A stretch of DNA of 44,509 bases from Candidatus Nomurabacteria bacterium RIFCSPHIGHO2_01_FULL_37_25 (GCA_001786765.1 MFTH01000003.1:1-44509), one strand, 5' to 3'. Positions 1 through 10,899 are shown, numbered from the stretch's first letter. A program made the numbers and translations. Notes: generated by a model from the sequence alone, not told the origin.

Positions 1-30
1 TTTAATGCTTTCGGGGGAATTCAATTTTTC

Positions 31-53
31 TTTTTAAGAATTAGCAATATAAA
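31..53 (+). repeat. 23-bp direct repeat, copy 1 (flanks the 79..777 gene)
   Basis: TTTTTAAGAATTAGCAATATAAA, 22/23 identical to 781..803. Confidence 0.85.
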
Positions 54-78
54 ATAAATAATAATATAATAAATTTAT

Positions 79-780: not shown

Positions 781-803
781 TTTTTAAGAATTAACAATAT
801 AAA
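781..803 (+). repeat. 23-bp direct repeat, copy 2 (leader of the recombinase remnant)
   Basis: TTTTTAAGAATTAACAATATAAA, followed by TTTATG at 804-809. Confidence 0.85.
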
Positions 804-806
804 TTT

Positions 807-869
807 ATGAACATCAAAAATTGCGCTATTTATACTCGTGTCTCAACCGATAACCAAGCGGAAGCATAA
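807..869 (+). pseudogene. N-terminal remnant of a serine recombinase (resolvase/large serine integrase family)
   Basis: Translates MNIKNCAIYTRVSTDNQAEA*; the Y-x-R-V-S-T-x-x-Q catalytic-serine motif is intact, then the sequence switches into the att-like repeat. Not in the ORF track. Confidence 0.75.
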
Positions 870-950
870 CTTACGAACGATAAAATGGGAAGAGGTGTTT
901 CCGCATTTCTTTCTGTTTCTTTGCAACAAATCAAGCAACTACTCATTATT
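860..950 (+). repeat. att-like repeat copy 1 (hybrid: recombinase 5' arm plus shared right arm)
   Basis: GGAAGCATAACTTACGAACGATAAAATGGGAAGAGGTGTTTCCGCATTTC...TCTGTTTCTTTGCAACAAAT matches 3921-3990 and 6256-6325. Confidence 0.85.
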
Positions 951-1045
951 ATTTAATTAGGGGCTACACTTACAAGTTAAACTTATGATTAAAAAGCAGG
1001 CATGGAAAAAGTAGAACAAAAAAACCACTTTGACTCAAATACCGT

Positions 1046-2644
1046 TTATTTAAATAATTCCATAAAAGAAGCAAGGACAAGACCAAGTATATTTGTGGTT
1101 GGTATTCGCGAGTGGGGTTGCAATTCAGGAGGAGGTTGCAAATTTTCACCTGATGGTATTTGGTAACTTCCCTCATTAGGCATCAATGTGTCTGAAGTTG
1201 GTGGAGTCATTTCCCATGGTGTACGAAATTCTTCCATTGGTTGCTGAAACTGATGTTGGTATTGTTGATTATATTCTTGCTGATATTGCAGATCGTATTT
1301 TTGATTCAAATCTTTCGGTGGTAGAAATTCCCCGTCTTTAAATTTCATCATTTGGTTTCTCTCAATATTTTCACCACCATTTGCTCCTTCTTCCTTGTTA
1401 CTTTCTCTTTTTAATTCACCTCTATCATCGATATCTATATTCATTTCTCTTTGCGGTGGAGAAAATTTCTGACATTCCTCCATATGATCTTTACAGTAAG
1501 TCATACACTCGTCTGGTCCCTTGCACCCTCCTGGACCGCTAAAATCCTCTCTGTCTCCTCGGCTTTCTGTATTTTCTTTATCCCTTTGTTCGCCGGCATT
1601 AAAATCACCACCCATTTGAGTCATAAAACCTTCAAAGCATGTATGCATTTTTTCTCCCATTGCTTCTCCGCCAAAAAACTCTCCGGACTGCATTTTCTCC
1701 AATCCTCCCGGACCAAGCGCTTCTTCGAGACACGCGATTACCTCGGGTGGAGCGTCTTCAAAAACTTTTTCTATTTGTTTTCGACCTTCTTCCATACGAC
1801 GCAGATCATCTTCTTTTAAAACTCCGTTTTCTTTGGCCCATTCGAAACATACTTGCTGGTTGCCGGCTTGTTCACAAAAAGCTTGGCATTGTCGGCCCTT
1901 ACACCCTCCCGGACCCCGTCCGCCTGCTTTTTTAAAAGCTTCAATGTGTTTTCTTTCTTCTTCATGTATCATGCCGTGTTTTTCGGCAAATGAAATACAT
2001 TCGTCAAAGTGTTCATCTGACTCACAGTAAGCTTCGCATTCGTCTTTGGACTTACATCCACCGGGAGTTTCTCCACTCTTCATTAATGGCATAAATTTTT
2101 TTGCTTGTTCAAGTTCTTCTGGAGGTAAGAACCCGCTTTCTTCGGCAAAGGCTAGACATTCTTCCATGTGATCTGGATTTTGACAATAATTCTCGCAGGC
2201 ATTTTTATTACGACAATCACCCGGCATTTTTTTACCACTTTGTATTATGGCGCGCACTTTTTTGGCTTCTTCTAAATCCTTGCCTTTCATTAAGCCATTC
2301 TCTTCTGCAAAAGCAACACATGTTTCAATATTGGCTACGTCGTCACAATAATTTTCGCAAGAAGCTTTAGAATTACACCCCCCTGGCCCACCCTTAACCC
2401 CGAGCACTTTTTCTGAAATACGAATTTCTTCCTCTGGTAGAAGCTGGTATTTTTTGGCGAAAGCCAAACACTGCGTTGCATTTTCATCAAGTTCGCAATA
2501 GGCGAAACACTCCGCCTTGTCGCTACATCCACCGAGTTCCATCACAGGAAAAACAATTTCCGACGCTTCATTCTGAGCTAACACAAAAGAAACAGAAAAT
2601 ATTCCCAAAGAGATAAGTAAAATTGTAAAAAGTTTCTGTTTCAT
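1046..2644 (-). CDS. Secreted/membrane-anchored protein with six Cys-rich repeats (PGGC-x5-C-x3-C-x8-C)
   Basis: 532 aa; signal peptide-like N-terminus, repeats such as GPGGCNSKASCENYC, Q/P-rich tail, C-terminal hydrophobic segment. Confidence 0.85.
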   Translation of the reverse strand: MKQKLFTILLISLGIFSVSFVLAQNEASEIVFPVMELGGCSDKAECFAYCELDENATQCLAFAKKYQLLPEEEIRISEKVLGVKGGPGGCNSKASCENYCDDVANIETCVAFAEENGLMKGKDLEEAKKVRAIIQSGKKMPGDCRNKNACENYCQNPDHMEECLAFAEESGFLPPEELEQAKKFMPLMKSGETPGGCKSKDECEAYCESDEHFDECISFAEKHGMIHEEERKHIEAFKKAGGRGPGGCKGRQCQAFCEQAGNQQVCFEWAKENGVLKEDDLRRMEEGRKQIEKVFEDAPPEVIACLEEALGPGGLEKMQSGEFFGGEAMGEKMHTCFEGFMTQMGGDFNAGEQRDKENTESRGDREDFSGPGGCKGPDECMTYCKDHMEECQKFSPPQREMNIDIDDRGELKRESNKEEGANGGENIERNQMMKFKDGEFLPPKDLNQKYDLQYQQEYNQQYQHQFQQPMEEFRTPWEMTPPTSDTLMPNEGSYQIPSGENLQPPPELQPHSRIPTTNILGLVLASFMELFK

Positions 2645-2961
2645 TCAAAAGGATTTTTTGTTTTAAAGGGATTAATTTTTTCTGTTGGACTAAGATCCGG
2701 CACATTCTTTACCGGGTTTGTCTCTACCTGCACTTTAGGTGGCTGACTTAACACTTCTACTGCTTCTTCGATAGTTTTCACACTAGTATCTTTTTCTTCG
2801 ATATCTCTTCCTATAAAATACCAATAAAACCCCACAGTAATTATAATAATTGCTGTAATCACTCCGACTAAAACATTTTTATTTATACTATTTGTATTGT
2901 CCACTAGATTTAAGTATACACCTAAGTTAATTGTCAAACAATATATTGTATAGATACTCAC
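2641..2961 (-). CDS. Small single-TM hypothetical protein (true start may be GTG at 2904)
   Basis: ORF between co-oriented genes, one TM helix VLVGVITAIIIITVGFYWYF. Confidence 0.7.
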   Translation of the reverse strand: MSIYTIYCLTINLGVYLNLVDNTNSINKNVLVGVITAIIIITVGFYWYFIGRDIEEKDTSVKTIEEAVEVLSQPPKVQVETNPVKNVPDLSPTEKINPFKTKNPFE

Positions 2962-3881
2962 CCGTCAATTAAATCTAGGGTTAAACAACCAGGAATGCTG
3001 GTTGACTCTTCGTAAAGTGATTGATCGCCGACGTATTCTTCCCAGGATTTAAAAAGAGAAACAATCTTCTTTTCTGTTTCTTGCTTGATGCTCGGATCAA
3101 GATAAAGAAACGGGCAAACATGTTGCGGAGCGCTTCCTCCCTTCAAAATCCCGATTTCTACAGCGCCGAATCCAGCAGGCGCTCCTCGATCAAAATTGCT
3201 TACCTCTCCGAGAATTTGACCCGCTTTTACTTTATCACCGACTTTAACCCTAGGATTCAGTATGTGCTCTGTTTCATAAATCCATTTTTCTAATTTACCG
3301 TTGGCAGTTACTTGAATAGAATAATCACCACTCCAGAGGGTAGGCATACTAACTACTACTCCGTCTACTAAAGAATGTACCGGAGTGCCTAGAGGCAGAA
3401 TGAAAGTAGGTTGCGGGTTATATTTATCAGGGGACGCGCTACTCGAGGGTATAAAAAAACCATAAGGCATAAATAAGCGATTAAAAGATAATTTTTGTTT
3501 TGTAAAAACAAAATCGCCTGCTGTATTTGACCCCGGATCATAATAACCCAAATTTACGCCAATACTTTTGAGAAGTAATGGTGGGACATCGTTGATATTT
3601 TCCTGAACAACTAGAACTGGAGGTTGAGCTGGTGGATTATTTTTAATTGTGACAGAAGAAGTGGATTCGGGTTTTACGATTTCTAGTTTTTTGATTTTCG
3701 ATGTATTTGCAATTCTAGTTTCAGAAGCTGGCAATTGATCAGTTTTATCTAAGATTATATCTGCGTCAGGTATTCCAATAGATGGATCCTTTTTGAAGGA
3801 ATAATAGACAAGACTGAGCAATATGGTAACTGCTACTACTATGTTTACCACATAGAAATTCAAAAAACCTTTTTTATTCAT
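2958..3881 (-). CDS. Membrane-anchored M23/LytM-like fold protein lacking the zinc motifs
   Basis: GTPVHSLVDGVVV and VKVGDKVKAGQILG are M23-type segments; HxxxD and HxH not seen. Confidence 0.65.
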   Translation of the reverse strand: MNKKGFLNFYVVNIVVAVTILLSLVYYSFKKDPSIGIPDADIILDKTDQLPASETRIANTSKIKKLEIVKPESTSSVTIKNNPPAQPPVLVVQENINDVPPLLLKSIGVNLGYYDPGSNTAGDFVFTKQKLSFNRLFMPYGFFIPSSSASPDKYNPQPTFILPLGTPVHSLVDGVVVSMPTLWSGDYSIQVTANGKLEKWIYETEHILNPRVKVGDKVKAGQILGEVSNFDRGAPAGFGAVEIGILKGGSAPQHVCPFLYLDPSIKQETEKKIVSLFKSWEEYVGDQSLYEESTSIPGCLTLDLIDG

Positions 3882-3912
3882 AAAATTATTTTACCATAGA
3901 TTACCCTGACTG

Positions 3913-3990
3913 GCTCGCTTGGAAGTATAGCTTACGAACGATAAAATGGGAGGTGTTTCCGCATTTCCTTCTGTTTCTTTGCAACAAATT
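3913..3990 (+). repeat. att-like repeat copy 2
   Basis: GCTCGCTTGGAAGTATAGCTTACGAACGATAAAATGGGAGGTGTTTCCGCATTTCCTTCTGTTTCTTTGCAACAAAT. Confidence 0.85.
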
Positions 3991-4057
3991 CGTAAATTAG
4001 TTTCCATTGTTAAAAATGATTAATAGTTATTCTTTTACCCCCACCCCTAAAAGTATA

Positions 4058-4990
4058 TTATACCTCCCAAACTTTATCACCGGGAGCAAAATCAACCTGG
4101 TATTCTGGAATACCTAATTTAAGACCGTATTTTTTAGCATCTTTATAAAGTATAGGGTTTTTCAAATCCACTTTAAATATTTTCCCTTGATAAACTATAA
4201 AATGGTAATGTTTATTTTTAAAATCAGCATACCAATTGTGTTTTTTGTCTAAGTTTTGACTTAATTGTTCAGCAATTTTATCTGCATTTTCTTCTTTAAT
4301 TTCAACAGTATGTAAAGTCCATTGTTTTTCCCAAGGTGTTTTATGTTTTTCTTTGATAGGTTCTATATTAGTTTTTAAGATTTTTATACCTTTCAGAATA
4401 TCTTTATTTTCTAAACTTTCTTCTATTACTACACCTCTATAGTAGAACTTTTGAAACTTAACCATATCAATATTGGAAAATACTCTAGGTATTGAAGACT
4501 CTTTTATCATTCCAAGTGAAGGACTTGAACCAAATCCTATATATTCAAGACTTTTCTTTTTTGCCTTACAAACATATTTAATAGCTGGAATAAGGTCAGT
4601 GTCTGAACTTATCACAATTGCTGTATCGTATAGATTGTCTGTTGCGCCTATTACTAAATCTACTGCTAGTTTTATATCTACACCCTTCTCTCTAATATTA
4701 CCATCATCATACATTATTCTTCCGTGTTTTACTTCAAATCCTTCTGCTTTTAAGCTATTCAAAAATGTCTGCTGATTTTTTACCATCTTTTCTGCTTTTT
4801 CTGAACCATCAACATTTCTCACTATTCCTATGTAGTATCTTTTTGATACCAATACTCTTTCTCCAACTAGATGTTCTATAAAAGCAGAATAATCAATCCT
4901 TGCCAATTTTTCTGGTATTCCTAAATCTTTCAATCTTCTGTAGGTATTACCCCCATCAATATATACAGCGACCCTTTCTTTTTTATCCAT
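4058..4990 (-). CDS. NYN (LabA/DUF88, PIN-like) ribonuclease fused to an uncharacterised C-terminal domain
   Basis: VYIDGGN, EKGVDIKLAVD and SSDTDLIPA acidic motifs in aa 1-180; ~130 extra aa follow. Confidence 0.85.
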   Translation of the reverse strand: MDKKERVAVYIDGGNTYRRLKDLGIPEKLARIDYSAFIEHLVGERVLVSKRYYIGIVRNVDGSEKAEKMVKNQQTFLNSLKAEGFEVKHGRIMYDDGNIREKGVDIKLAVDLVIGATDNLYDTAIVISSDTDLIPAIKYVCKAKKKSLEYIGFGSSPSLGMIKESSIPRVFSNIDMVKFQKFYYRGVVIEESLENKDILKGIKILKTNIEPIKEKHKTPWEKQWTLHTVEIKEENADKIAEQLSQNLDKKHNWYADFKNKHYHFIVYQGKIFKVDLKNPILYKDAKKYGLKLGIPEYQVDFAPGDKVWEV

Positions 4991-5020
4991 AATGCGAGTT
5001 TAGCATATTATTTAGACCAT

Positions 5021-5057
5021 AACAAAAACCGCCTCTGTCCTTGCGGACAGAGGCGGT
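5021..5057 (-). terminator. Intrinsic terminator upstream of the NYN gene
   Basis: Perfect 13-bp stem 5028-5040/5045-5057, GCAA loop on the minus strand, followed by TTTTTGTT. Confidence 0.8.
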
Positions 5058-5072
5058 GGTGTTAGTTAGCCC

Positions 5073-5101
5073 ATTATATACCTGTATTACAAAAAAATCA
5101 A
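5073..5101 (-). promoter_or_regulatory. sigma70-type promoter driving a short RNA
   Basis: TTGATT-17 bp-TATAAT on the minus strand. Confidence 0.7.
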
Positions 5102-5131
5102 TAGACTGTGGAAAACTAAAATTAGCTATAT

Positions 5132-5401
5132 TTAAGCAGTGGATAAGTTCATTTTTTCAAGAAAACCTTTTGACATAAGTTTAAGGGTTTTTTTATCTAA
5201 ATTTTGTAAATTTTCCCATAGCTGAAATGTTTTGTAATTTTTATCCATTTCAATAATTTTCCATTCATTTGGCTCAATTTCTACAAAATCATCATCTTCG
5301 GGTGTATATTCTTTATTCATTACCAAAAACGGGAAATAAAAATCTTTATGCCCATCCAAATATTGCAAAATTTTTATAGCCAATTCTCTACTTATATCCA
5401 T
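5132..5401 (-). CDS. Hypothetical protein
   Basis: 89-aa ORF co-oriented with its neighbours; no motif recognised. Confidence 0.6.
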   Translation of the reverse strand: MDISRELAIKILQYLDGHKDFYFPFLVMNKEYTPEDDDFVEIEPNEWKIIEMDKNYKTFQLWENLQNLDKKTLKLMSKGFLEKMNLSTA

Positions 5402-5435
5402 ATATGATTTTTGATCAAATACAAATAAAAGTCAA

Positions 5436-6224
5436 CTATCGAAGTTTGTATTTACCTTGTCCAACGAAATCAAGATACTGTTTATCACGTGGGAATTGTA
5501 ATTGCTGGCGGATTTTGTCTTTAATATGTTTATTTTCCGGATGAATAACTTTTAAATCAGGTTCAAAATTATAAACATCTTGCAGATAAAATTCCTTTTT
5601 ATTCAAAGAATCAATACAATTCATAATATCCAAAATCCAACCTTTTGCATCTGCTTTCTTAACTTCTTTGAGAAAAATTGTTTTCTGCCATTTGTCTAAA
5701 ACTTGTTTTTTTGAAATTTCTTTTCCGTCTTCAATATAAAATATCTGACCTGCTTTCGGTATCTTTGAAAACAAAATATTAGAACCAACCCAACCTGCTC
5801 TGCGTGCAGTTTTTTAAAGTGGTTTCCTTTTTTCAATAATTTCAGAAATAAAAAAGTGTTTAGGCACAACAAAAAAGTCATTTACATAAAAAGACTCTAA
5901 ATAACCCACAAAGAAGAAATTGGGTTTTGTAGTAGAATTTATTCTTTCAATCATTTTTGAATAAGCTCCCGCAGGCACAGTTTTACCAATTTTTCCTTTT
6001 TTAGATTTTAACTCAAAATCTTCATTACATTTTTTGCAATAGAAATCAGCAACTGGTTTATTATTTTCATATTCATAAATTTTTACCGCTCCACAATTTG
6101 GACAATATATTTGATTTAAAACCCAATCTTCGCTTAAAACACGAATTTTTTGGGAAGCACTTATGTAGTTATCTGTAATATTTTCTGCAAAAGATACATT
6201 GATTTTTCGTTCGGCTACTACCAT
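5436..6224 (-). pseudogene. DpnI/Dam-replacing-family methyl-directed endonuclease with one in-frame TAA
   Basis: SQKIRVLSEDW, YCPNCG, NNKPVADFYC, ELKSKK, then RKPL*KTARRAGW and KDKIRQQLQ; the two track ORFs are in the same frame (stop at 5814-5816). Confidence 0.9.
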
Positions 6225-6247
6225 CTTTATATGATAGCAAATTCTCT

Positions 6248-6350
6248 GCTCGCTTGGAAGTATAACTTACGAACGATTAAATGGGAAGAGGTGTTCTCTT
6301 ATCCGTCTGTTTCTTTACAACAAATGAGGCAATTACTGGCGATTTTTTAG
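6248..6350 (+). repeat. att-like repeat copy 3
   Basis: GCTCGCTTGGAAGTATAACTTACGAACGATTAAATGGGAAGAGG...; open frame reads LLAWKYNLRTIKWEEVFSYPSVSLQQMRQLLAIF*. Confidence 0.85.
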
Positions 6351-6446
6351 TAATTATCTTGGACGGGGGCAGGGTTGTCGTGTCTGCGTATAATGTGTAT
6401 ATATCTTTAGGCATCCCCGCACAGATTGGATTTTAACCAAATTATC

Positions 6447-6818
6447 ATGGAAGAAGAAAAAATAAAAGAAAAAAATAAATTACCCAAAACCAATCATAGG
6501 GTCTTTAAATACTTTAAAGCTCTTAAACAAGGCAAGACAAAAACTGAGGCTTCTATTATAGCTGGTTATCCTGATCCAAACCATACGACAAGAATTGAGA
6601 AGACAAAAGGTTTTCAAGTCCTTGAAAGATATTATAAGCATGAGCTATTAAACCAGATTTCTTTACAGGAAATAGCTGAAGTGAATGCTAGGAATATACG
6701 ACAGGAAAGAGACATTGGAGGGTCTAATACTGCCATCAAGCTGGCTTTGGAGAAAATAGAGCCAGATCAGATAAGAGAAGACGATTTTGATAAGGTAATT
6801 GTAGTTTTGAGCAAGTAA
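6447..6818 (+). CDS. Putative phage terminase small subunit-like / HTH protein
   Basis: KTEASIIAGY followed by IEKTKGFQ resembles TerS N-termini; ATG at 6447 preferred over TTG at 6426. Confidence 0.45.
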   Translation: MEEEKIKEKNKLPKTNHRVFKYFKALKQGKTKTEASIIAGYPDPNHTTRIEKTKGFQVLERYYKHELLNQISLQEIAEVNARNIRQERDIGGSNTAIKLALEKIEPDQIREDDFDKVIVVLSK

Positions 6819-6832
6819 TGGGTTAAAAAAGG

Positions 6833-7273
6833 TTAAACTTTCCCACACACAGACCAGAAACAACCTATCTTGTAGATTATTATTAGAGCAATAATGCTTA
6901 GTATAAATAAAACTATGTCTGGTAAATAACCCATGACCTTTTCCCATTTTGTAGATTCTACATTGGTTTTACCAAGTAATTGGTCAATGGATTTTCTAGA
7001 AGCAATTTCCCAGCTTTTTAATTGATGATTATACAACCATAAGGTTAAGGGGATAAGAAGAACTAGTGTACATATTAAAATACGGACTGTGCTGTCTAGG
7101 GGTAGAATTTTTTCATTGAAAGTAGCAATCACAAGAAAAGTAGCTAATATGCCTGTGGTTGTCGGTACTATCCCTAGTCTTGTACCAATAGCCTCTTTTA
7201 CCATGTTCAAATAGAAGCTTATGATGGGAAATTTTTGATCTTGGGAGAGTTTTTCAAAATCTTCTTTTTCCAT
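6833..7273 (-). CDS. Hypothetical membrane protein
   Basis: 146 aa with about 3 hydrophobic helices. Confidence 0.7.
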   Translation of the reverse strand: MEKEDFEKLSQDQKFPIISFYLNMVKEAIGTRLGIVPTTTGILATFLVIATFNEKILPLDSTVRILICTLVLLIPLTLWLYNHQLKSWEIASRKSIDQLLGKTNVESTKWEKVMGYLPDIVLFILSIIALIIIYKIGCFWSVCGKV

Positions 7274-7337
7274 ATCTAACTATGATACATGTAGTATTCA
7301 ATAATTCCTATTCCTAGTAGTATCGCTAACCAGTCAA

Positions 7338-7637
7338 TCATTTTTCTTTATCATCCATTTTTACTTTTGAGTTGAGTAAAATAATCAAGGACACCCATGG
7401 CATAAAAGGAACCAATGTAGATAAACCAAGTCCCCATGATACAGCCGTTTTCATTTTAAGTTTTAAAGCATACCAAATTGTTAATGCTATTAGTCCGATT
7501 TTTGTAATGATTGTAAGTAATTGTGATAATTCTTCAGATAATAGGATATTCCCAGACATTACTCCTATGCGGACAAGAATAGGTGGCACTATAAGAACCA
7601 CGAACCAAATAATGTATGTCTTTTTATTAGTTTTCAT
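7338..7637 (-). CDS. Small hypothetical membrane protein
   Basis: 99 aa with 3 hydrophobic segments. Confidence 0.65.
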   Translation of the reverse strand: MKTNKKTYIIWFVVLIVPPILVRIGVMSGNILLSEELSQLLTIITKIGLIALTIWYALKLKMKTAVSWGLGLSTLVPFMPWVSLIILLNSKVKMDDKEK

Positions 7638-7842
7638 ATTTTCTAAGTAAATAAAGAATAAGAACAGCTGAAAAGAAATATATAAAAGTTAGGGTTAGAG
7701 AATATTCACAATTACCTCCTAAGCTAAGAATATTATCACAGGCACGACCAATAGAATTGTGACGAAGAAACATTCCGTGAACAGCCCAAACAACAACTCC
7801 TATTTCAGCAATTACTAATAAAATCTTGGTATATCTTTTCAT
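7627..7842 (-). CDS. Small hypothetical membrane protein
   Basis: 71 aa, two TM segments with a Cys pair between them; overlaps the next gene by 11 nt. Confidence 0.55.
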   Translation of the reverse strand: MKRYTKILLVIAEIGVVVWAVHGMFLRHNSIGRACDNILSLGGNCEYSLTLTFIYFFSAVLILYLLRKYEN

Positions 7843-7861
7843 ATAATTTTATTACTACCAA

Positions 7862-8476
7862 TTACCAAGGAAGTAAATACGCAGTAAATGATGTACACTC
7901 ATCTACAGTTCGTAAGTCCATACGGTATTTAGAACCAAGTACAAAATAATCTTGCGGTGTTGTTGTACTGGTAAATAAAGGACCCTGATCATGCCAATTA
8001 ACACCATCATTCGAATAGTGTAAGGCATAAGTAGCTGAAGCTTGATTACTATGAATAGAAATTCTTGAATACTCAGTTGTATCCATTATTTGAGAATATT
8101 CGCCCACCCAACCACCACATTTATTAACGAAAAGAGTTACTTTTTTAGCTTGCGGACCCAACTCTTCAAGATTTCCTGAATCACCCTTATCACCTTTTAA
8201 TCCTTGTGGACCTGTTTCTCCGATTGGACCTCGAGGACCAACATCGCCAGTATCGCCCTTGTCGCCTTTATCACCCTTTATACCAACAACATTCCAAGTT
8301 AATAATTGATCATTTTTTTTACAATCAGCTCTCCTGAAACCATCACCAATAACATAAACCAAGCCACTCTTTTTGGCACAGATAGTAATTTCATTACCAG
8401 TTGCTTGCGAATAAGACCAAATACCAAGAACCAGAGCGAGACTAAAAATTCCAACACCTATAATCTTCATTTTCAT
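7862..8476 (-). CDS. Secreted collagen-like protein
   Basis: Signal peptide plus 13 consecutive Gly-X-Y triplets (GIKGDK...GDSGNL). Confidence 0.8.
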   Translation of the reverse strand: MKMKIIGVGIFSLALVLGIWSYSQATGNEITICAKKSGLVYVIGDGFRRADCKKNDQLLTWNVVGIKGDKGDKGDTGDVGPRGPIGETGPQGLKGDKGDSGNLEELGPQAKKVTLFVNKCGGWVGEYSQIMDTTEYSRISIHSNQASATYALHYSNDGVNWHDQGPLFTSTTTPQDYFVLGSKYRMDLRTVDECTSFTAYLLPW

Positions 8477-8515
8477 ATAATATATTTCAACCTTAATCTA
8501 ATAATAAAATGGTAG

Positions 8516-8660
8516 CAAAAAGCCCACCACAGGTAGAGACCGAAGTCTCTCGCACAGGTTTCCCTGTACGGCAGATCGTGCAACCCCATGATGGGTTTTT
8601 TATTCACGATCTGACTTTTAACCATACCTTAAACTTTGAAATTCAAGGGTTAGGTCTCTA
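8516..8660 (-). ncRNA. Structured cis-regulatory/antisense RNA with c4-like architecture
   Basis: Minus strand has hairpins GTACAGG-GAAA-CCTGTGC and GAGAC-TTCG-GTCTC, closing stem CCCATCAT/GTGGTGGG plus U-tract, and nested complements TAGAGACC/GGTCTCTA and CAGATCGTG/CACGATCTG. Confidence 0.6.
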
Positions 8661-8804
8661 TTAAGTTTTATAATTTAATGCTATCACGGAACTGGCTAAA
8701 AATGAAGTTTTTTCGGTTTCAGACCTTGTAAAATCAGTAAAAAAGTGATATTATGTATATCACCTATACAAAAGAGTGATTTTGAATCAACCAATTCTAT
8801 CCTG

Positions 8805-8876
8805 CTCCGGGGGTAGGGATCGAACCTACGACCAATCGCTTAACAGGCGATCGCTCTACCACTGAGCTACCCCGGA
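8805..8876 (-). tRNA. tRNA-Asn(GTT)
   Basis: 72-nt cloverleaf TCCGGGG...CCCCGGAG; anticodon arm ATCGC-CTGTTAA-GCGAT; T-loop GGTTCGAT; full CCA not encoded. Confidence 0.97.
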
Positions 8877-9119
8877 ATATTTATTTTTTAATTTTTCTTT
8901 ACCATATCCTGATTTCCAATATTTTTCTCTGCTTCTCGCATAAGTTCTATTTGTCCCAGTTTTTTCAAAAAATATCTGAACCCAAGGACGAAAACCTTTT
9001 GTAGAAAAAACTTTTCCATTATTATGTTCCAACAATCTTTTTCCTGGGTTTTGGCTCATACCTACATAAATTCTATCGTCCTTTGTGCTTTTAATAGCAT
9101 AAACAAAAAATTCTTTCAT
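8856..9119 (-). CDS. Stand-alone GIY-YIG nuclease
   Basis: FVYAIKS...IYVGMS...RLLEHN...AR-REKYWK motifs; the last codons (SGVAQW*) lie inside the tRNA 5' end. Confidence 0.9.
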   Translation of the reverse strand: MKEFFVYAIKSTKDDRIYVGMSQNPGKRLLEHNNGKVFSTKGFRPWVQIFFEKTGTNRTYARSREKYWKSGYGKEKLKNKYSGVAQW

Positions 9120-9133
9120 AATTTTATGATATC

Positions 9134-9187
9134 ACAGGCGATCGCTCCCTGCCTGCCGGCAGGCAGGTACCACTGAGCTACCCCGGA
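9134..9187 (-). pseudogene. Duplicated 5' half of tRNA-Asn interrupted by a 20-bp palindrome
   Basis: Identical to the tRNA 5' half up to ...GCCTGT of the anticodon loop once 9148-9167 is removed. Confidence 0.9.
9148..9167. repeat. Perfect 20-bp palindromic element
   Basis: CCTGCCTGCC|GGCAGGCAGG. Confidence 0.9.
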
Positions 9188-9203
9188 ATATTATTTATAA
9201 TAC

Positions 9204-9250
9204 AAACTGAGAGCTGACGTTTCAGTCAGTTTCCCGACCTTGCGTCGGGA
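9204..9250. repeat. Composite hairpin element
   Basis: AAACTGA...TCAGTTT plus TCCCGAC-CTTGC-GTCGGGA, followed by a tRNA-end-like CTACCCCCGGAAT. Confidence 0.65.
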
Positions 9251-9363
9251 CTACCCCCGGAATGTATTTTAATTTATAAAGAACCTAGATTATATTAGCA
9301 GAAATTATCAAAAAAACAAAATAAAGATGGAAACTTTATGAGTTTATGCTAATATGTTTTTAT

Positions 9364-10899
9364 ATGAAGAAAAAAATAAATTTTCAAGAAATCAAATCTT
9401 TTTTATTAAAAAACAAGAAAATATCTATTCCTGTTTTTATCGCAATTATTGTTATCGTTTTTTTTGTTTTTCGCGCTTCGGAATCAGATGTTGCGAGTAT
9501 AGAATCCGTAAAATTCACTGATTTAAAGAAATCTGTGCGCGCGACCGGTCAGGTAGTTTCAGAAACTGACATAAGCCTTTCCTTCAACAAGGCAAGCGTA
9601 GTCAGATCTGTAAGAGCAAAGGTAGGGGACAAAGTTAATTCTGGGATGATTCTAGCGACACTTGACCAAGGACAAGCGTTTGCGACGCTAACAGAAGCCA
9701 AAGGCAAGTTACTAGGAGCAGAAGCAAAATACAATAAAATTTTAGAAGGGTATTCAAATGAAGAAATAATTTTAGCTGAAGTTGCCTTTAAAAATGCGCA
9801 GACAGATTTGGTAAATAAAAAAAATAATCAAATCACAGTCGTAGCGAACGCCTATCAAACATTACTCAATTCATCTATTGCGGCTTTTTCTATTTCCACA
9901 GGAGATACTCAAATCGCTCCGACTATTACTGGCACATATGTTCTAGAGAAAGAAGGAGATATAAGAATTTCCACCTATCAAGGGGGCAGTTGGTATTTCG
10001 ATGGTTTTGGTTTGGTAAATGCTTTTGGAGTTGTGAGTAGTACTACGCCTCAGCCTATTGGAGAATCCGGTTTGTATATACAATTTCCAACCACTTTTAC
10101 TCAAGGTAACTGGATTATTTCTATTCCAAATAAAAAAGCGACAAATTATTTAACAAATTACAATGCATACAAGAGCGCCATTGAAGACCAGACTATCATC
10201 GTCGCAACTGCGCAATCTCTTGTTGACCAAAGACAAGCAGAACTTAACCTTAAAAAAGCAGTTGCTAGAAATACTGATGTGGATATTGCCAAAGCAGAAG
10301 TCTTGTCAGCCGAAGGCGCTTTACAATCCGCGCAGTCTTTGTATGAAGATACTATTATCCGCGCTGGGACTTCTGGCACAATCACCAAAGTTGATATAAA
10401 ATACGGCGAACTTTCTGAGATAGGCAAGCCAGTGATTACTTTAGAGGATGTGGGCAATTTATATATTGAAGCTCTGATTAACGAAGCTAACATCGCTTAT
10501 TTAAAAATGGGTCAAAGCGTCAGTATTACTTTTGACGCTTTTGGTAAGGATAAGAATTTTACTGGAGTAATAGCTCATATAGACCCATCAGCAGAGACAA
10601 ATAATGGCGTTGTTAATTATAAAATTAAAGTTTCTTTGAATGAAAAGGATGAAACTATTCGTCCCGGGATGAATGCTAATATTGATATCTTGGCGGGGCA
10701 AGTATCTAATGTTTTGGCAATACCATATATTGCTATAAATAAAAAAGACGGGAAATATTTCGTGGATTTTATTACTAATGAAAAAAATAAAAAATACGAA
10801 GATAGGGAAGTCCAAATTGGTTTCTTGGGGGACAATAATTTGGTTGAAATAACTTCAGGCTTGAAGGCTGATGATAAAGTAGCTCTTAGAAAAGATTAA
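9364..10899 (+). CDS. HlyD/MacA-family periplasmic adaptor subunit
   Basis: N-terminal TM, VRAKVGDKVNSG lipoyl half, long coiled coil, IRPGMNANIDI and LVEITSGL; start moved to MKKK at 9364. Confidence 0.9.
   Translation: MKKKINFQEIKSFLLKNKKISIPVFIAIIVIVFFVFRASESDVASIESVKFTDLKKSVRATGQVVSETDISLSFNKASVVRSVRAKVGDKVNSGMILATLDQGQAFATLTEAKGKLLGAEAKYNKILEGYSNEEIILAEVAFKNAQTDLVNKKNNQITVVANAYQTLLNSSIAAFSISTGDTQIAPTITGTYVLEKEGDIRISTYQGGSWYFDGFGLVNAFGVVSSTTPQPIGESGLYIQFPTTFTQGNWIISIPNKKATNYLTNYNAYKSAIEDQTIIVATAQSLVDQRQAELNLKKAVARNTDVDIAKAEVLSAEGALQSAQSLYEDTIIRAGTSGTITKVDIKYGELSEIGKPVITLEDVGNLYIEALINEANIAYLKMGQSVSITFDAFGKDKNFTGVIAHIDPSAETNNGVVNYKIKVSLNEKDETIRPGMNANIDILAGQVSNVLAIPYIAINKKDGKYFVDFITNEKNKKYEDREVQIGFLGDNNLVEITSGLKADDKVALRKD

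Follow-up and report, generated by a model that had tools for sequence, protein, structure and literature searches.

Displaced ends of serine recombinase genes beside a tRNA-Asn gene in a Candidate Phyla Radiation bacterium: a probable composite island

Introduction

The stretch of DNA considered here, positions 1-44509 of MFTH01000003.1 from Candidatus Nomurabacteria bacterium RIFCSPHIGHO2_01_FULL_37_25 (assembly GCA_001786765.1), is referred to throughout, at its full length of 44,509 nt, as the window; its host is a Candidate Phyla Radiation (CPR), Paceibacteria-like, genome. Between positions 781 and 6350 it holds three same-orientation copies of a ~105-nt unit, the first of them fused to the opening codons of a large serine recombinase (LSR) gene, and blocks of cargo genes separate these copies from one another and from a tRNA-Asn gene further downstream. 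Homology identifies the unit as the last ~34 codons of the phrog_95-type LSR gene family. It is probable that 781-6350 forms the left part of a composite island at the tRNA-Asn gene, in which the units are displaced LSR tails marking stacked blocks that have no LSR.

Organization of the repeat array

A repeat search (families D1 and D2) finds the unit in three direct-orientation copies in the 44.5-kb window, and two independent 20-22-mers taken from it match at these 3 places only, with 0.00-0.01 matches expected from shuffles. The boundaries of the units were refined by alignment and six-frame translation. The features on which the argument turns are listed first; P and P′ denote the arms of the attachment site of the element (attP), and B and B′ those of the target site (attB).

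781-806, + strand: LSR promoter and 5′ leader, second copy; together with the remnant, 90% identical to 1373-1455 of the related locus L024
807-869, + strand: remnant of the resident LSR, with 19 native codons including the catalytic motif YTRVSTDNQ, then Ala and a stop
860-956, + strand: unit 1, an LSR P′ arm and tail lacking the first ~10 nt, frameshifted, and joined to the remnant at GGAAG (860-864)
3882-3910, + strand: candidate short P-arm remnant preceding unit 2, with the unit-frame reading FTIDYPDW and ending CCCTGACTGG
3911-4023, + strand: unit 2, P′ arm and tail, frameshifted by a 2-nt insertion common to unit 1 and by a 3-nt deletion
6246-6350, + strand: unit 3, an intact P′ arm and tail, with the open reading frame (ORF) LLAWKYNLRTIKWEEVFSYPSVSLQQMRQLLAIF followed by a stop; E = 1e-22 with the hidden Markov model (HMM) of the tail
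8804-8876, - strand: tRNA-Asn(GTT), which forms the B′ side of the attachment site and has in its 3′ end, GCTCCGG, a core in common with the start of the unit

Units 2 and 3 have in common a left arm, (T)GCTCGCTTGGAAG, which translates as (W/L)LAWKY(S/N)LRTIKWE. In unit 1 this arm is replaced by the leader, the ATG and 19 codons, MNIKNCAIYTRVSTDNQAE (807-863), and the two parts meet out of frame, so that a stop follows at 867-869. A single frame is open through the whole unit in unit 3 only. The tail HMM finds no further diverged units in the window or upstream of it, and the array is identical in all 17 contigs of the window's own population. The initial annotation of this DNA had described three repeats in the same orientation, the first fused to 19 recombinase codons, and the repeat search, the k-mer matches and the alignment all agree with it.

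Two other proposals made at that stage were not supported. The crossover had been placed at a dyad centred on ATA; this dyad scores 8/11 in unit 3, which 12% of shuffles of the unit equal, and it decays to 2-7/11 in relatives. Each block had also been credited with a -10 box of its own. The sole promoter-like match near block B lies inside unit 3, on the minus strand (6287-6259, 9/12), and such matches are not enriched across the region as a whole. The distance from the unit to the start of the first gene is 29 nt in block A and 21 nt in block B.

The unit as the end of a recombinase gene

An exhaustive HMMER search with unit 3 as query returned 15 tail-bearing proteins (P0099-P0113). The tail is the C-terminal end in 14 of them, the ORF of P0110 as called extending beyond it, and four of the 15 carry it on LSR C-terminal regions. 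Residues 13-153 of P0109 match the phrog_95 ‘integrase’ profile at positions 438-585, directly before the tail, and the pre-tail parts of P0102, P0103, P0105 and P0109 are mutually homologous. In the DNA of locus L035, 133 LSR C-terminal codons are contiguous with the tail. Two LSRs that recur below, those of loci L024 (profile positions 87-447) and L001 (same family), match further upstream in phrog_95. It is because the tail sits on LSR C-termini, as judged by the profile match and by the contiguity at L035, that the unit is identified as the last ~34 codons of LSR genes. The idea put forward initially, that the repeat is the 3′ end of an LSR gene doubling as one side of its attachment site, is thereby upheld, by the 15 tail proteins, by P0109 and L035, and by the loci L024, L028 and L029 considered in the next sections. 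The tail HMM does not match the L024 LSR as it stands, because that gene is in the integrated state.

The coding character of the unit is evident from its copies elsewhere. A 21-mer of the unit was used to scan genomes, metagenome contigs and viral contigs. Single copies turned up in L011 (Saccharibacteria) and L012 (Nomurabacteria), both of them CPR genomes, and in eight contigs from metagenomes, whereas the IMG/VR viral contigs had no copy. Across nine intact and independent copies, taken from other CPR genomes and from metagenomes, the reading is conserved as (L/M/W)LAWK(Y/D)(N/S)LRTIKWEE(V/M)FP(Y/F)PSVSLQQ..QLLA(I/L)V followed by a stop. Outside the stretch fixed by the search pattern, third-codon positions are the most variable, and the differing codon pairs comprise 264 synonymous and 276 non-synonymous; this third-position variation and the synonymous share argue that the unit is coding sequence. 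The unit starts at the same nucleotide in all loci found by 21-mer. To its left the DNA is unrelated between loci and often consists of bidirectional terminators, as would be expected of DNA that formerly lay downstream of a tRNA gene.

Several other identities were considered and set aside. A structured RNA is not indicated, given that no Rfam family matches at any unit and that folds of both strands are no better than those of shuffles (z = -0.5 to -1.5). A tRNA fragment, or an ordinary attachment-site repeat derived from a tRNA, was rejected on the grounds that the unit and the tRNA end share merely 4-6 nt. Template or variable repeats of a diversity-generating retroelement, IS200/IS605 ends, PATE-like elements and a tmRNA-like tag were dropped once the tail had been found on LSR C-termini.

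The crossover position and the tRNA target

The position of the crossover can be read from population variants. For 256 nt, ending at TGGCTC, loci L043 and L044 match L042 and L045 with 100% identity, and the shared stretch comprises unit 1 of that locus, a 110-nt spacer with a hairpin, and CTCTCCTGTCTGGCTC. After TGGCTC the first pair continues into tRNA-Asn and the second into a new, diverged unit that reads W at the join and then LALRDDFLKLDWVEIYKYPTVTIKQMRELL. This divergence puts the switch of arms at TGGCTC, where the unit has its 5′ edge and the tRNA its 3′ end. That the arms should switch at a fixed position had been set beforehand as a test of the initial proposal, and these variants place the crossover there. 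Compared with L043, the new unit of L042 is joined exactly at the P/tRNA junction, that is, by accretion.

The same point is marked by LSR genes at their tRNA targets. The LSR ORFs of L024 and L028 enter tRNA-Asn ~40 residues past the last conserved LSR block, where the tail of P0103 begins, and the peptide before the junction in L028, RKFASYSL, resembles GRFASVHPMW of P0101, which stands directly before a tail. The core common to the unit (GCTCGC) and the tRNA (GCTCCGG or GCTGCGG) amounts to 4-6 nt. Units carry TACGAAC at +18..+24 from the CT core, including four of the five unit types found without a DNA pattern, and the T-arm of the tRNA carries (A/T)TCGAAC at +13..+19, a 5-nt offset from the motif of the unit. 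A 5-nt shift is also known between the half-sites of attP and attB in serine integrases. The canonical LSR reaction of attP with attB proceeds by a 2-bp staggered cut between P-type and B-type half-sites, of which the shared core containing CT and the greater distance of TACGAAC from the core in P′ are no more than hints in the sequence. A symmetry between the P arm of L024 and the P′ arm was examined and dropped: GTTCGTA at -20..-14 and TACGAAC at +18..+24 are unequally spaced.

The recombinase remnant and its orthologs

LSR genes were recognized by the Pfam domains Resolvase, Recombinase and Zn_ribbon_recom and by phrog_95. Window 807-863 carries the N-terminal catalytic motif of the family, Y-x-R-V-S-T-x-x-Q, with the serine ~10-13 residues from the start. 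By tblastn, 18 of the 19 residues of the remnant are identical to the L024 LSR, and a 75-aa ortholog matches phrog_95 positions 87-156 (E = 3e-21). No LSR body (Recombinase and zinc-ribbon domains) is found by tblastn in the 44.5 kb, where only the 19 codons are kept, and copy 1 is thus, as had been claimed, what remains of a recombinase gene whose body has gone. In the orthologs at L024, L028 and L029 both domains are present at near full length, each gene being frameshifted; the L024 LSR has ~460 codons with one +1 shift in an A-run, and that of L029, which is 77% identical, adjoins tRNA-Gln. Loci L024-L028 were reached from protein P0003, and P0001 and P0002 (loci L021-L023) have the same N-terminus, with upstream DNA as in window 1-55.

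L024 provides a reference for the window, with which it agrees in the order of its genes. It consists of an inverted repeat, the LSR, a second inverted repeat, tRNA-Asn (- strand), a GIY-YIG gene (- strand), a duplicated tRNA fragment and, last, an MFP gene. In nucleotides, the leader and first 19 codons are 90% identical to those of the window and the upstream region 84%, whereas the MFP is just 32% identical, from which it follows that the recombinase region is horizontally mobile. Relative to L024 the window is without everything from codon 20 through the P arm, and the 7.9 kb between remnant and tRNA-Asn are occupied by unit 1, block A, unit 2, block B, unit 3 and block C. The inverted repeats on either side of the L024 LSR are ~130-170 nt long and 90-96% identical (1188-1361 and 2637-2787). 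Their outer ends both read ...GTTCGTATCTAGTTTCTTGGCTCC, so that the left end is an inverted copy of the P/tRNA junction, which might have arisen by inversion or represent a palindromic site.

It had been suggested that the recombinase body was excised between two sites by its own product. However, the junction in copy 1 is found 10 nt into the unit instead of at the mapped crossover, with only a 5-nt microhomology, and in other lineages the gene is broken at many other points: at codon 22 (L021), by frameshifts at ~codons 27, 56 and 75, and in further cases. On these grounds self-excision is not accepted. A reciprocal junction, in which the left arm would be joined to the recombinase body, was found neither in the window, nor in the 10 kb upstream, nor at any of the loci.

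Some further observations concern this gene family. An extra A in GAAAAAAGAAAAAAAT at L024 1611-1626, found also in L025-L028, splits the recombinase into 75 aa and 309 aa in 15 contigs from several samples; the split gene may be either a fixed pseudogene or one with a slippage-prone run. In another strain, at L021 (188-930), the recombinase keeps 22 codons and its last ~45, the interior being an NYN-domain gene whose ATG overlaps the stop of a 40-aa leader ORF (ATGA), an overlap that suggests expression of the cargo from the recombinase promoter. Eleven independent clusters among P0003-P0097 stop right after ...KSQNN, where relatives have Trp, which could reflect a recurrent nonsense mutation or the reading of TGA as Trp in some hosts. 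Finally, a second LSR, which is intact, 524 aa long and different from the resident one, is encoded at L001 4695-6280, ~3.6-5.2 kb ahead of the point where the window begins. Its ORF continues at the 3′ end into an oppositely oriented tRNA-Ala(TGC), and this genome therefore has another integrase with an ORF that crosses its attachment junction.

Whole elements and arrays elsewhere

At L041 a terminator is followed by a unit (10067-10171), 8.5 kb of cargo, an HTH_17 gene and, from 18692, a 552-aa LSR with a P0109-like C-terminal region, all on the + strand; this is the layout predicted for an intact integrated element. Arrays recur as well. L042 has three units, and L039 has two units and no LSR, with cargo that includes NYN and DUF3800 genes and an end at tRNA-Gln. 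L013 consists of a truncated unit, one gene and tRNA-Asn. The cargo differs among distant genomes, and the only cargo homology between arrays is the M23 peptidase of block A, which has relatives in L034-L037. One unit-bearing contig, L018, also contains a group I intron (RF00028, 76 bits; 4334-4625, - strand), which does not adjoin the unit.

Origin of the array

Comparison thus establishes what the unit is, where the crossover lies, that a tRNA is the target and that arrays recur. We propose that the island was built by phrog_95-type LSRs whose attP crossover would lie inside the recombinase ORF itself, with ~34 codons still to come before the stop. When such an element enters a tRNA gene at its very 3′ end (core TGGCTC/GCTC), the recombinase body would be joined to tRNA sequence, and the P′ arm and the 34-codon tail would be displaced to the far end of the element, the sharp 5′ edge of the unit being the crossover. 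A further element could then join at the P/tRNA junction, which would give P/P′ junctions and direct arrays of units. In the window, three units would head three blocks whose recombinases were lost or never carried; units 2 and 3 would be junctions of the P/P′ or B/P′ type at the head of blocks B and C, and the resident LSR would once have read into unit 1, until an internal deletion from codon 20 to 10 nt inside unit 1 took place at the GGAAG microhomology. The order of these events, the activity of the enzyme and any role of the tail we infer.

Several points weigh against this account. No full-length ORF with both the MNIKNC... N-terminus and the tail was recovered, and the LSR pieces that bear the tail are partial ORFs or come from short contigs. 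In a word-index protein search the tail had no match, a chimera of N-terminus and tail matched two short ORFs, and a 49-aa N-terminal query matched only proteins of 29-86 aa; this search appears to return only proteins of about the length of the query, and its negatives are uninformative on full-length proteins. At L046 the unit and the LSR are in opposite orientations. The L042 contig is without a tRNA, and the variant there could stem from another rearrangement at the same core. The putative P-arm remnants before units 2 and 3 are short, with no more than weak similarity to P arms already known, and blocks A-C may either have lost their integrases or never have had one. It is also a textbook rule that large serine integrases do not recombine attP with attR, and accretion at a P/tRNA junction would therefore need a relaxed requirement for the B arm. 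The unrelated left flanks of the units and the comparison of L042 with L043 suggest that the requirement may indeed be relaxed.

The best surviving alternative, which we consider unlikely although it deserves to be set out in full, is an integron-like platform. Here the blocks would be cassettes without a recombinase, each with a minimal site made of a short P arm and a P′ tail, captured and excised in trans by the one resident LSR, and the C-terminal tail of the LSR at the head would be supplied by whichever cassette lies first. Evidence for such minimal sites includes the pyrimidine-rich ..CTG(G) that abuts the next core at the end of each window block (3901-3910, 6238-6247 and 8795-8804), a suggestive but weak sign that the sequences before unit 2, unit 3 and the tRNA could be short P arms. 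FTIDYPDW, before unit 2, fits the pattern F-x3-(N/H/D/Y)-P-x-(W/L/M) that precedes the tail in P0101, P0103 and P0109, and 3882-3910 also resembles the P arm of L042, TCCTGTCTGG; for this one stretch, too, the resemblance to a short P arm is suggestive only. L042 contains what could pass for a cassette free of cargo (a tail, the 110-nt hairpin and P arm, and the next unit), and at L015 and L042 a hairpin, 13-21 nt and TGG precede the unit with no LSR. On the other hand, the LSR 3′ remnants upstream of units vary continuously in length, being 167, ~15, ~9, ~8 and 0 codons, a spread consistent with random deletion from the 5′ side together with ascertainment through the tail.

A remnant LSR does head the window array, reading into unit 1, and if the P arm of L024 is connected to a unit at the core, the frame is kept, with ...SSFL followed by LAWK; but the only recombinase at the array is destroyed, and units 1 and 2 are frameshifted. 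A tail supplied by cassettes would make sense of the coding constraint on units that are mostly untranslated, yet a coding signal can also be inherited from functional source genes. The arrays at L039 and L013 have no LSR, but the recurrence of LSR-less arrays (L039, L042) is as well explained by ordinary accretion of tRNA-targeting integrative elements followed by loss of the integrase. Neither an excised circle, nor an empty site, nor reshuffling between strains was seen, 17 of 17 population contigs carrying the same array. From the integron-like array of the initial annotation, then, what stands is that LSR-less arrays of blocks recur (L039, L042) and that a unit was gained at a P/tRNA junction; the defining features of integrons are absent. 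That the first cassette at the tRNA, through an exchangeable C-terminal tail encoded by the P′ half of its minimal attP, would complete, and possibly tune or switch, the LSR that moves the cassettes, as a serine-recombinase analogue of the integron in CPR bacteria, is a doubtful proposition.

Segmental duplication or homologous recombination of a gene fragment, with a chance junction in copy 1 and no part for site-specific recombination in the present structure, is very improbable. The 2-nt insertion common to units 1 and 2 does suggest copying or gene conversion, and the copy-1 junction is a 5-nt microhomology remote from the mapped crossover, but duplication leaves unaccounted for the same 5′ boundary in >12 unrelated loci with unrelated left flanks, the exact switch between tRNA and unit at TGGCTC in population variants, and the association of units with tRNA-Asn or tRNA-Gln and with LSR genes. 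Just as little credence can be given to the unit as a free-standing element, be it a gene for a ~35-aa small protein, a structured RNA or a regulatory leader: LAW is often preceded by TTG, CTG or ATG, P0104 was called as a 34-aa ORF and a weak minus-strand promoter-like match lies inside unit 3, but the preceding codon is TGG, GGG, GAG, CGC or AAT in other copies, no conserved start, ribosome-binding site or promoter is found upstream across the compared loci, there is no Rfam match, folding energies do not surpass those of shuffles, and the tail is contiguous with LSR C-terminal domains.

Cargo and neighbouring features

The remaining features from the start of the window to the tRNA are as follows.

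1-30, + strand: inner end of the GC-rich inverted repeat (IR-L) found ahead of the LSR gene at related loci, from alignment to L024
31-75, + strand: LSR promoter and 5′ leader with ATG, first copy, now preceding a 232-aa ORF (direct repeats D9/D13)
79-777, + strand: 232-aa membrane-protein ORF, inserted at the LSR start codon, between the copies of a ~42-nt duplication
1046-3881, - strand: block A cargo, a 532-aa Cys-rich secreted repeat protein, a 106-aa transmembrane protein and a 307-aa M23 peptidase
4058-6224, - strand: block B cargo, a 310-aa NYN-domain protein, an 89-aa ORF and a DpnI-family endonuclease gene
6426-8656: block C, from unit 3 to the tRNA, with a 130-aa ORF (+), ORFs of 146, 99, 71 and 204 aa (-) and a LOOT RNA

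Window 1-75 aligns to L024 1342-1414, and window 1-20 matches in addition the inverted copy at L024 2656-2637. The D9/D13 repeats lie at 31-59 and 781-809, and both copies of the leader align to L024 1373-1414. The ~42-nt duplication (31-75 and 781-822), which consists of the recombinase leader and ATG, brackets the 232-aa ORF, and this ORF, which is missing between the same flanks in L021, L023, L024 and L028, appears to use the promoter and start of the recombinase.

In block A, the 532-aa secreted protein (1046-2644, - strand) is built of ~53-aa repeats with paired cysteines, with a period of ~159 nt (repeat family D3), and has no Pfam match. The DpnI-family (methyl-directed) endonuclease gene of block B (5436-6224, - strand) is interrupted by one in-frame stop (5814-5816); the break is present in all population contigs, and the two resulting ORFs are in the same frame. 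The LOOT RNA (RF03000) of block C, at 8535-8656 on the - strand, has counterparts at L016 1719-1840, L014 1328-1453 and L011 1785-1902. In these four independent loci a unit stands 1.6-5.5 kb to its left and on the other strand, and each time the RNA closes with a terminator-like hairpin that immediately precedes a gene for a small secreted or membrane protein; it looks like a cis-acting leader rather than a free small RNA.

The tRNA-Asn gene is the only tRNA found in the window by ARAGORN and Rfam. Beyond it, a GIY-YIG endonuclease gene (8856-9119, - strand) stands between the tRNA and a partial second copy of the 5′ half of the tRNA (~9126-9186), which is interrupted by a GC-rich palindrome, CCTGCCTGCCGGCAGGCAGG; a further end reading ...CCCCGGAAT lies near 9250. 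L024 has the same arrangement of GIY-YIG gene and partial tRNA as window 8804-9260, which suggests a homing-endonuclease cassette nested at the tRNA.

Relation to known systems

The nearest known architecture is that of the SSV-type integrases of archaeal viruses and plasmids. These enzymes, also called ‘suicidal’, have attP inside the integrase ORF, so that integration into a tRNA gene splits the gene; tandem integration can rebuild hybrid integrase genes of mixed origin, and trapped elements accumulate at tRNA genes (PMC7253208, PMC8371274). The system described here is similar in that attP lies in the ORF, the gene is split at a tRNA gene, and an integrase fragment without a start is left at one end of the element. 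The integrated gene is fused to a tRNA where the free gene continues (tRNA-Asn in L024 and L028, tRNA-Gln in L029), and in L041 the displaced fragment occupies the other end of the element, oriented like the gene, with L046 as a counter-example in orientation. The differences are that the archaeal enzymes are tyrosine recombinases whereas these are serine-family LSRs of CPR bacteria, that the archaeal split yields two inactive halves whereas here only the last ~34 residues are removed, and that the shared core is ~4-6 nt rather than a long stretch identical to the tRNA. By analogy, then, the architecture is the bacterial serine-recombinase counterpart of the ‘suicidal’ integrases. Literature searches brought up no report of an ORF-internal attP for large serine integrases or for CPR bacteria, although the absence of a report is no proof of novelty.

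Among serine recombinases the nearest system is the staphylococcal cassette chromosome (SCC), whose Ccr proteins are likewise LSRs and insert SCC elements at one fixed chromosomal site. Common to SCC and the window are LSR insertion at a fixed site and tandem stacks between short direct repeats, many of them without a recombinase of their own. SCC composite islands are indeed formed by tandem stacking that includes ccr-less pseudo-SCC elements (doi 10.1101/336396). In SCC, however, the repeats are the 3′ end of the target gene rlmH, whereas in the window they are what the recombinase gene itself has at its 3′ end; a tRNA gene serves here as target, and the organisms and cargo are unrelated. 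In Streptococcus, integrative and conjugative elements and their cis-mobilizable relatives (CIMEs) accrete at the 3′ ends of tRNA or other genes by means of tyrosine integrases, and their attachment-site repeats copy the end of the target gene. CIMEs resemble the present arrays in forming tandem series bounded by repeats derived from attachment sites, the members without a recombination module being movable by the enzyme of a neighbour, and differ in their tyrosine integrases and in that the repeats here are pieces of an integrase gene.

With integrons the window shares a direct array of blocks between related recombination sites and a hybrid first junction next to the recombinase gene. There is no IntI tyrosine recombinase, however, only a remnant of a serine recombinase; attC sites, imperfect palindromes that fold as single strands, are conserved in structure and not in sequence, whereas the units are conserved in sequence and frame, with an unconserved dyad and shuffle-like folding; and the blocks are multi-gene, lie on the opposite strand, presumably have promoters of their own and show no observed shuffling of cassettes. 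One further parallel concerns the tail. In the integration-dependent immunity of mycobacteriophages, attP is reportedly placed in the repressor gene, and integration by a tyrosine integrase is said to remove a C-terminal degradation tag (Broussard et al. 2013). The two systems are alike in that attP is in coding sequence and integration removes a C-terminal peptide ending in hydrophobic residues, although there the gene is a repressor served by a tyrosine integrase and here it is the recombinase itself. That the ...QLLAIV tail might be a degron is a guess from this analogy.

Implications

If the proposed architecture is confirmed, the integrated and free forms of a serine integrase would differ in their C-terminus, which could be a simple switch of directionality or stability. 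Serine integrases are widely used as genome-engineering tools, and a family that combines a detachable tail with a compact target at a tRNA end would be of interest as one. Should the integron-like reading prove true instead, the state of the array would have a built-in coupling to the structure of the recombinase. The ~105-nt tail next to tRNA-Asn or tRNA-Gln would also serve, on confirmation, as a signature that delimits elements and their cargo in genomes that are hard to annotate, and would explain why stacks of small blocks, rich in nuclease genes and in other genes of unknown role, are found at tRNA genes in very small genomes.

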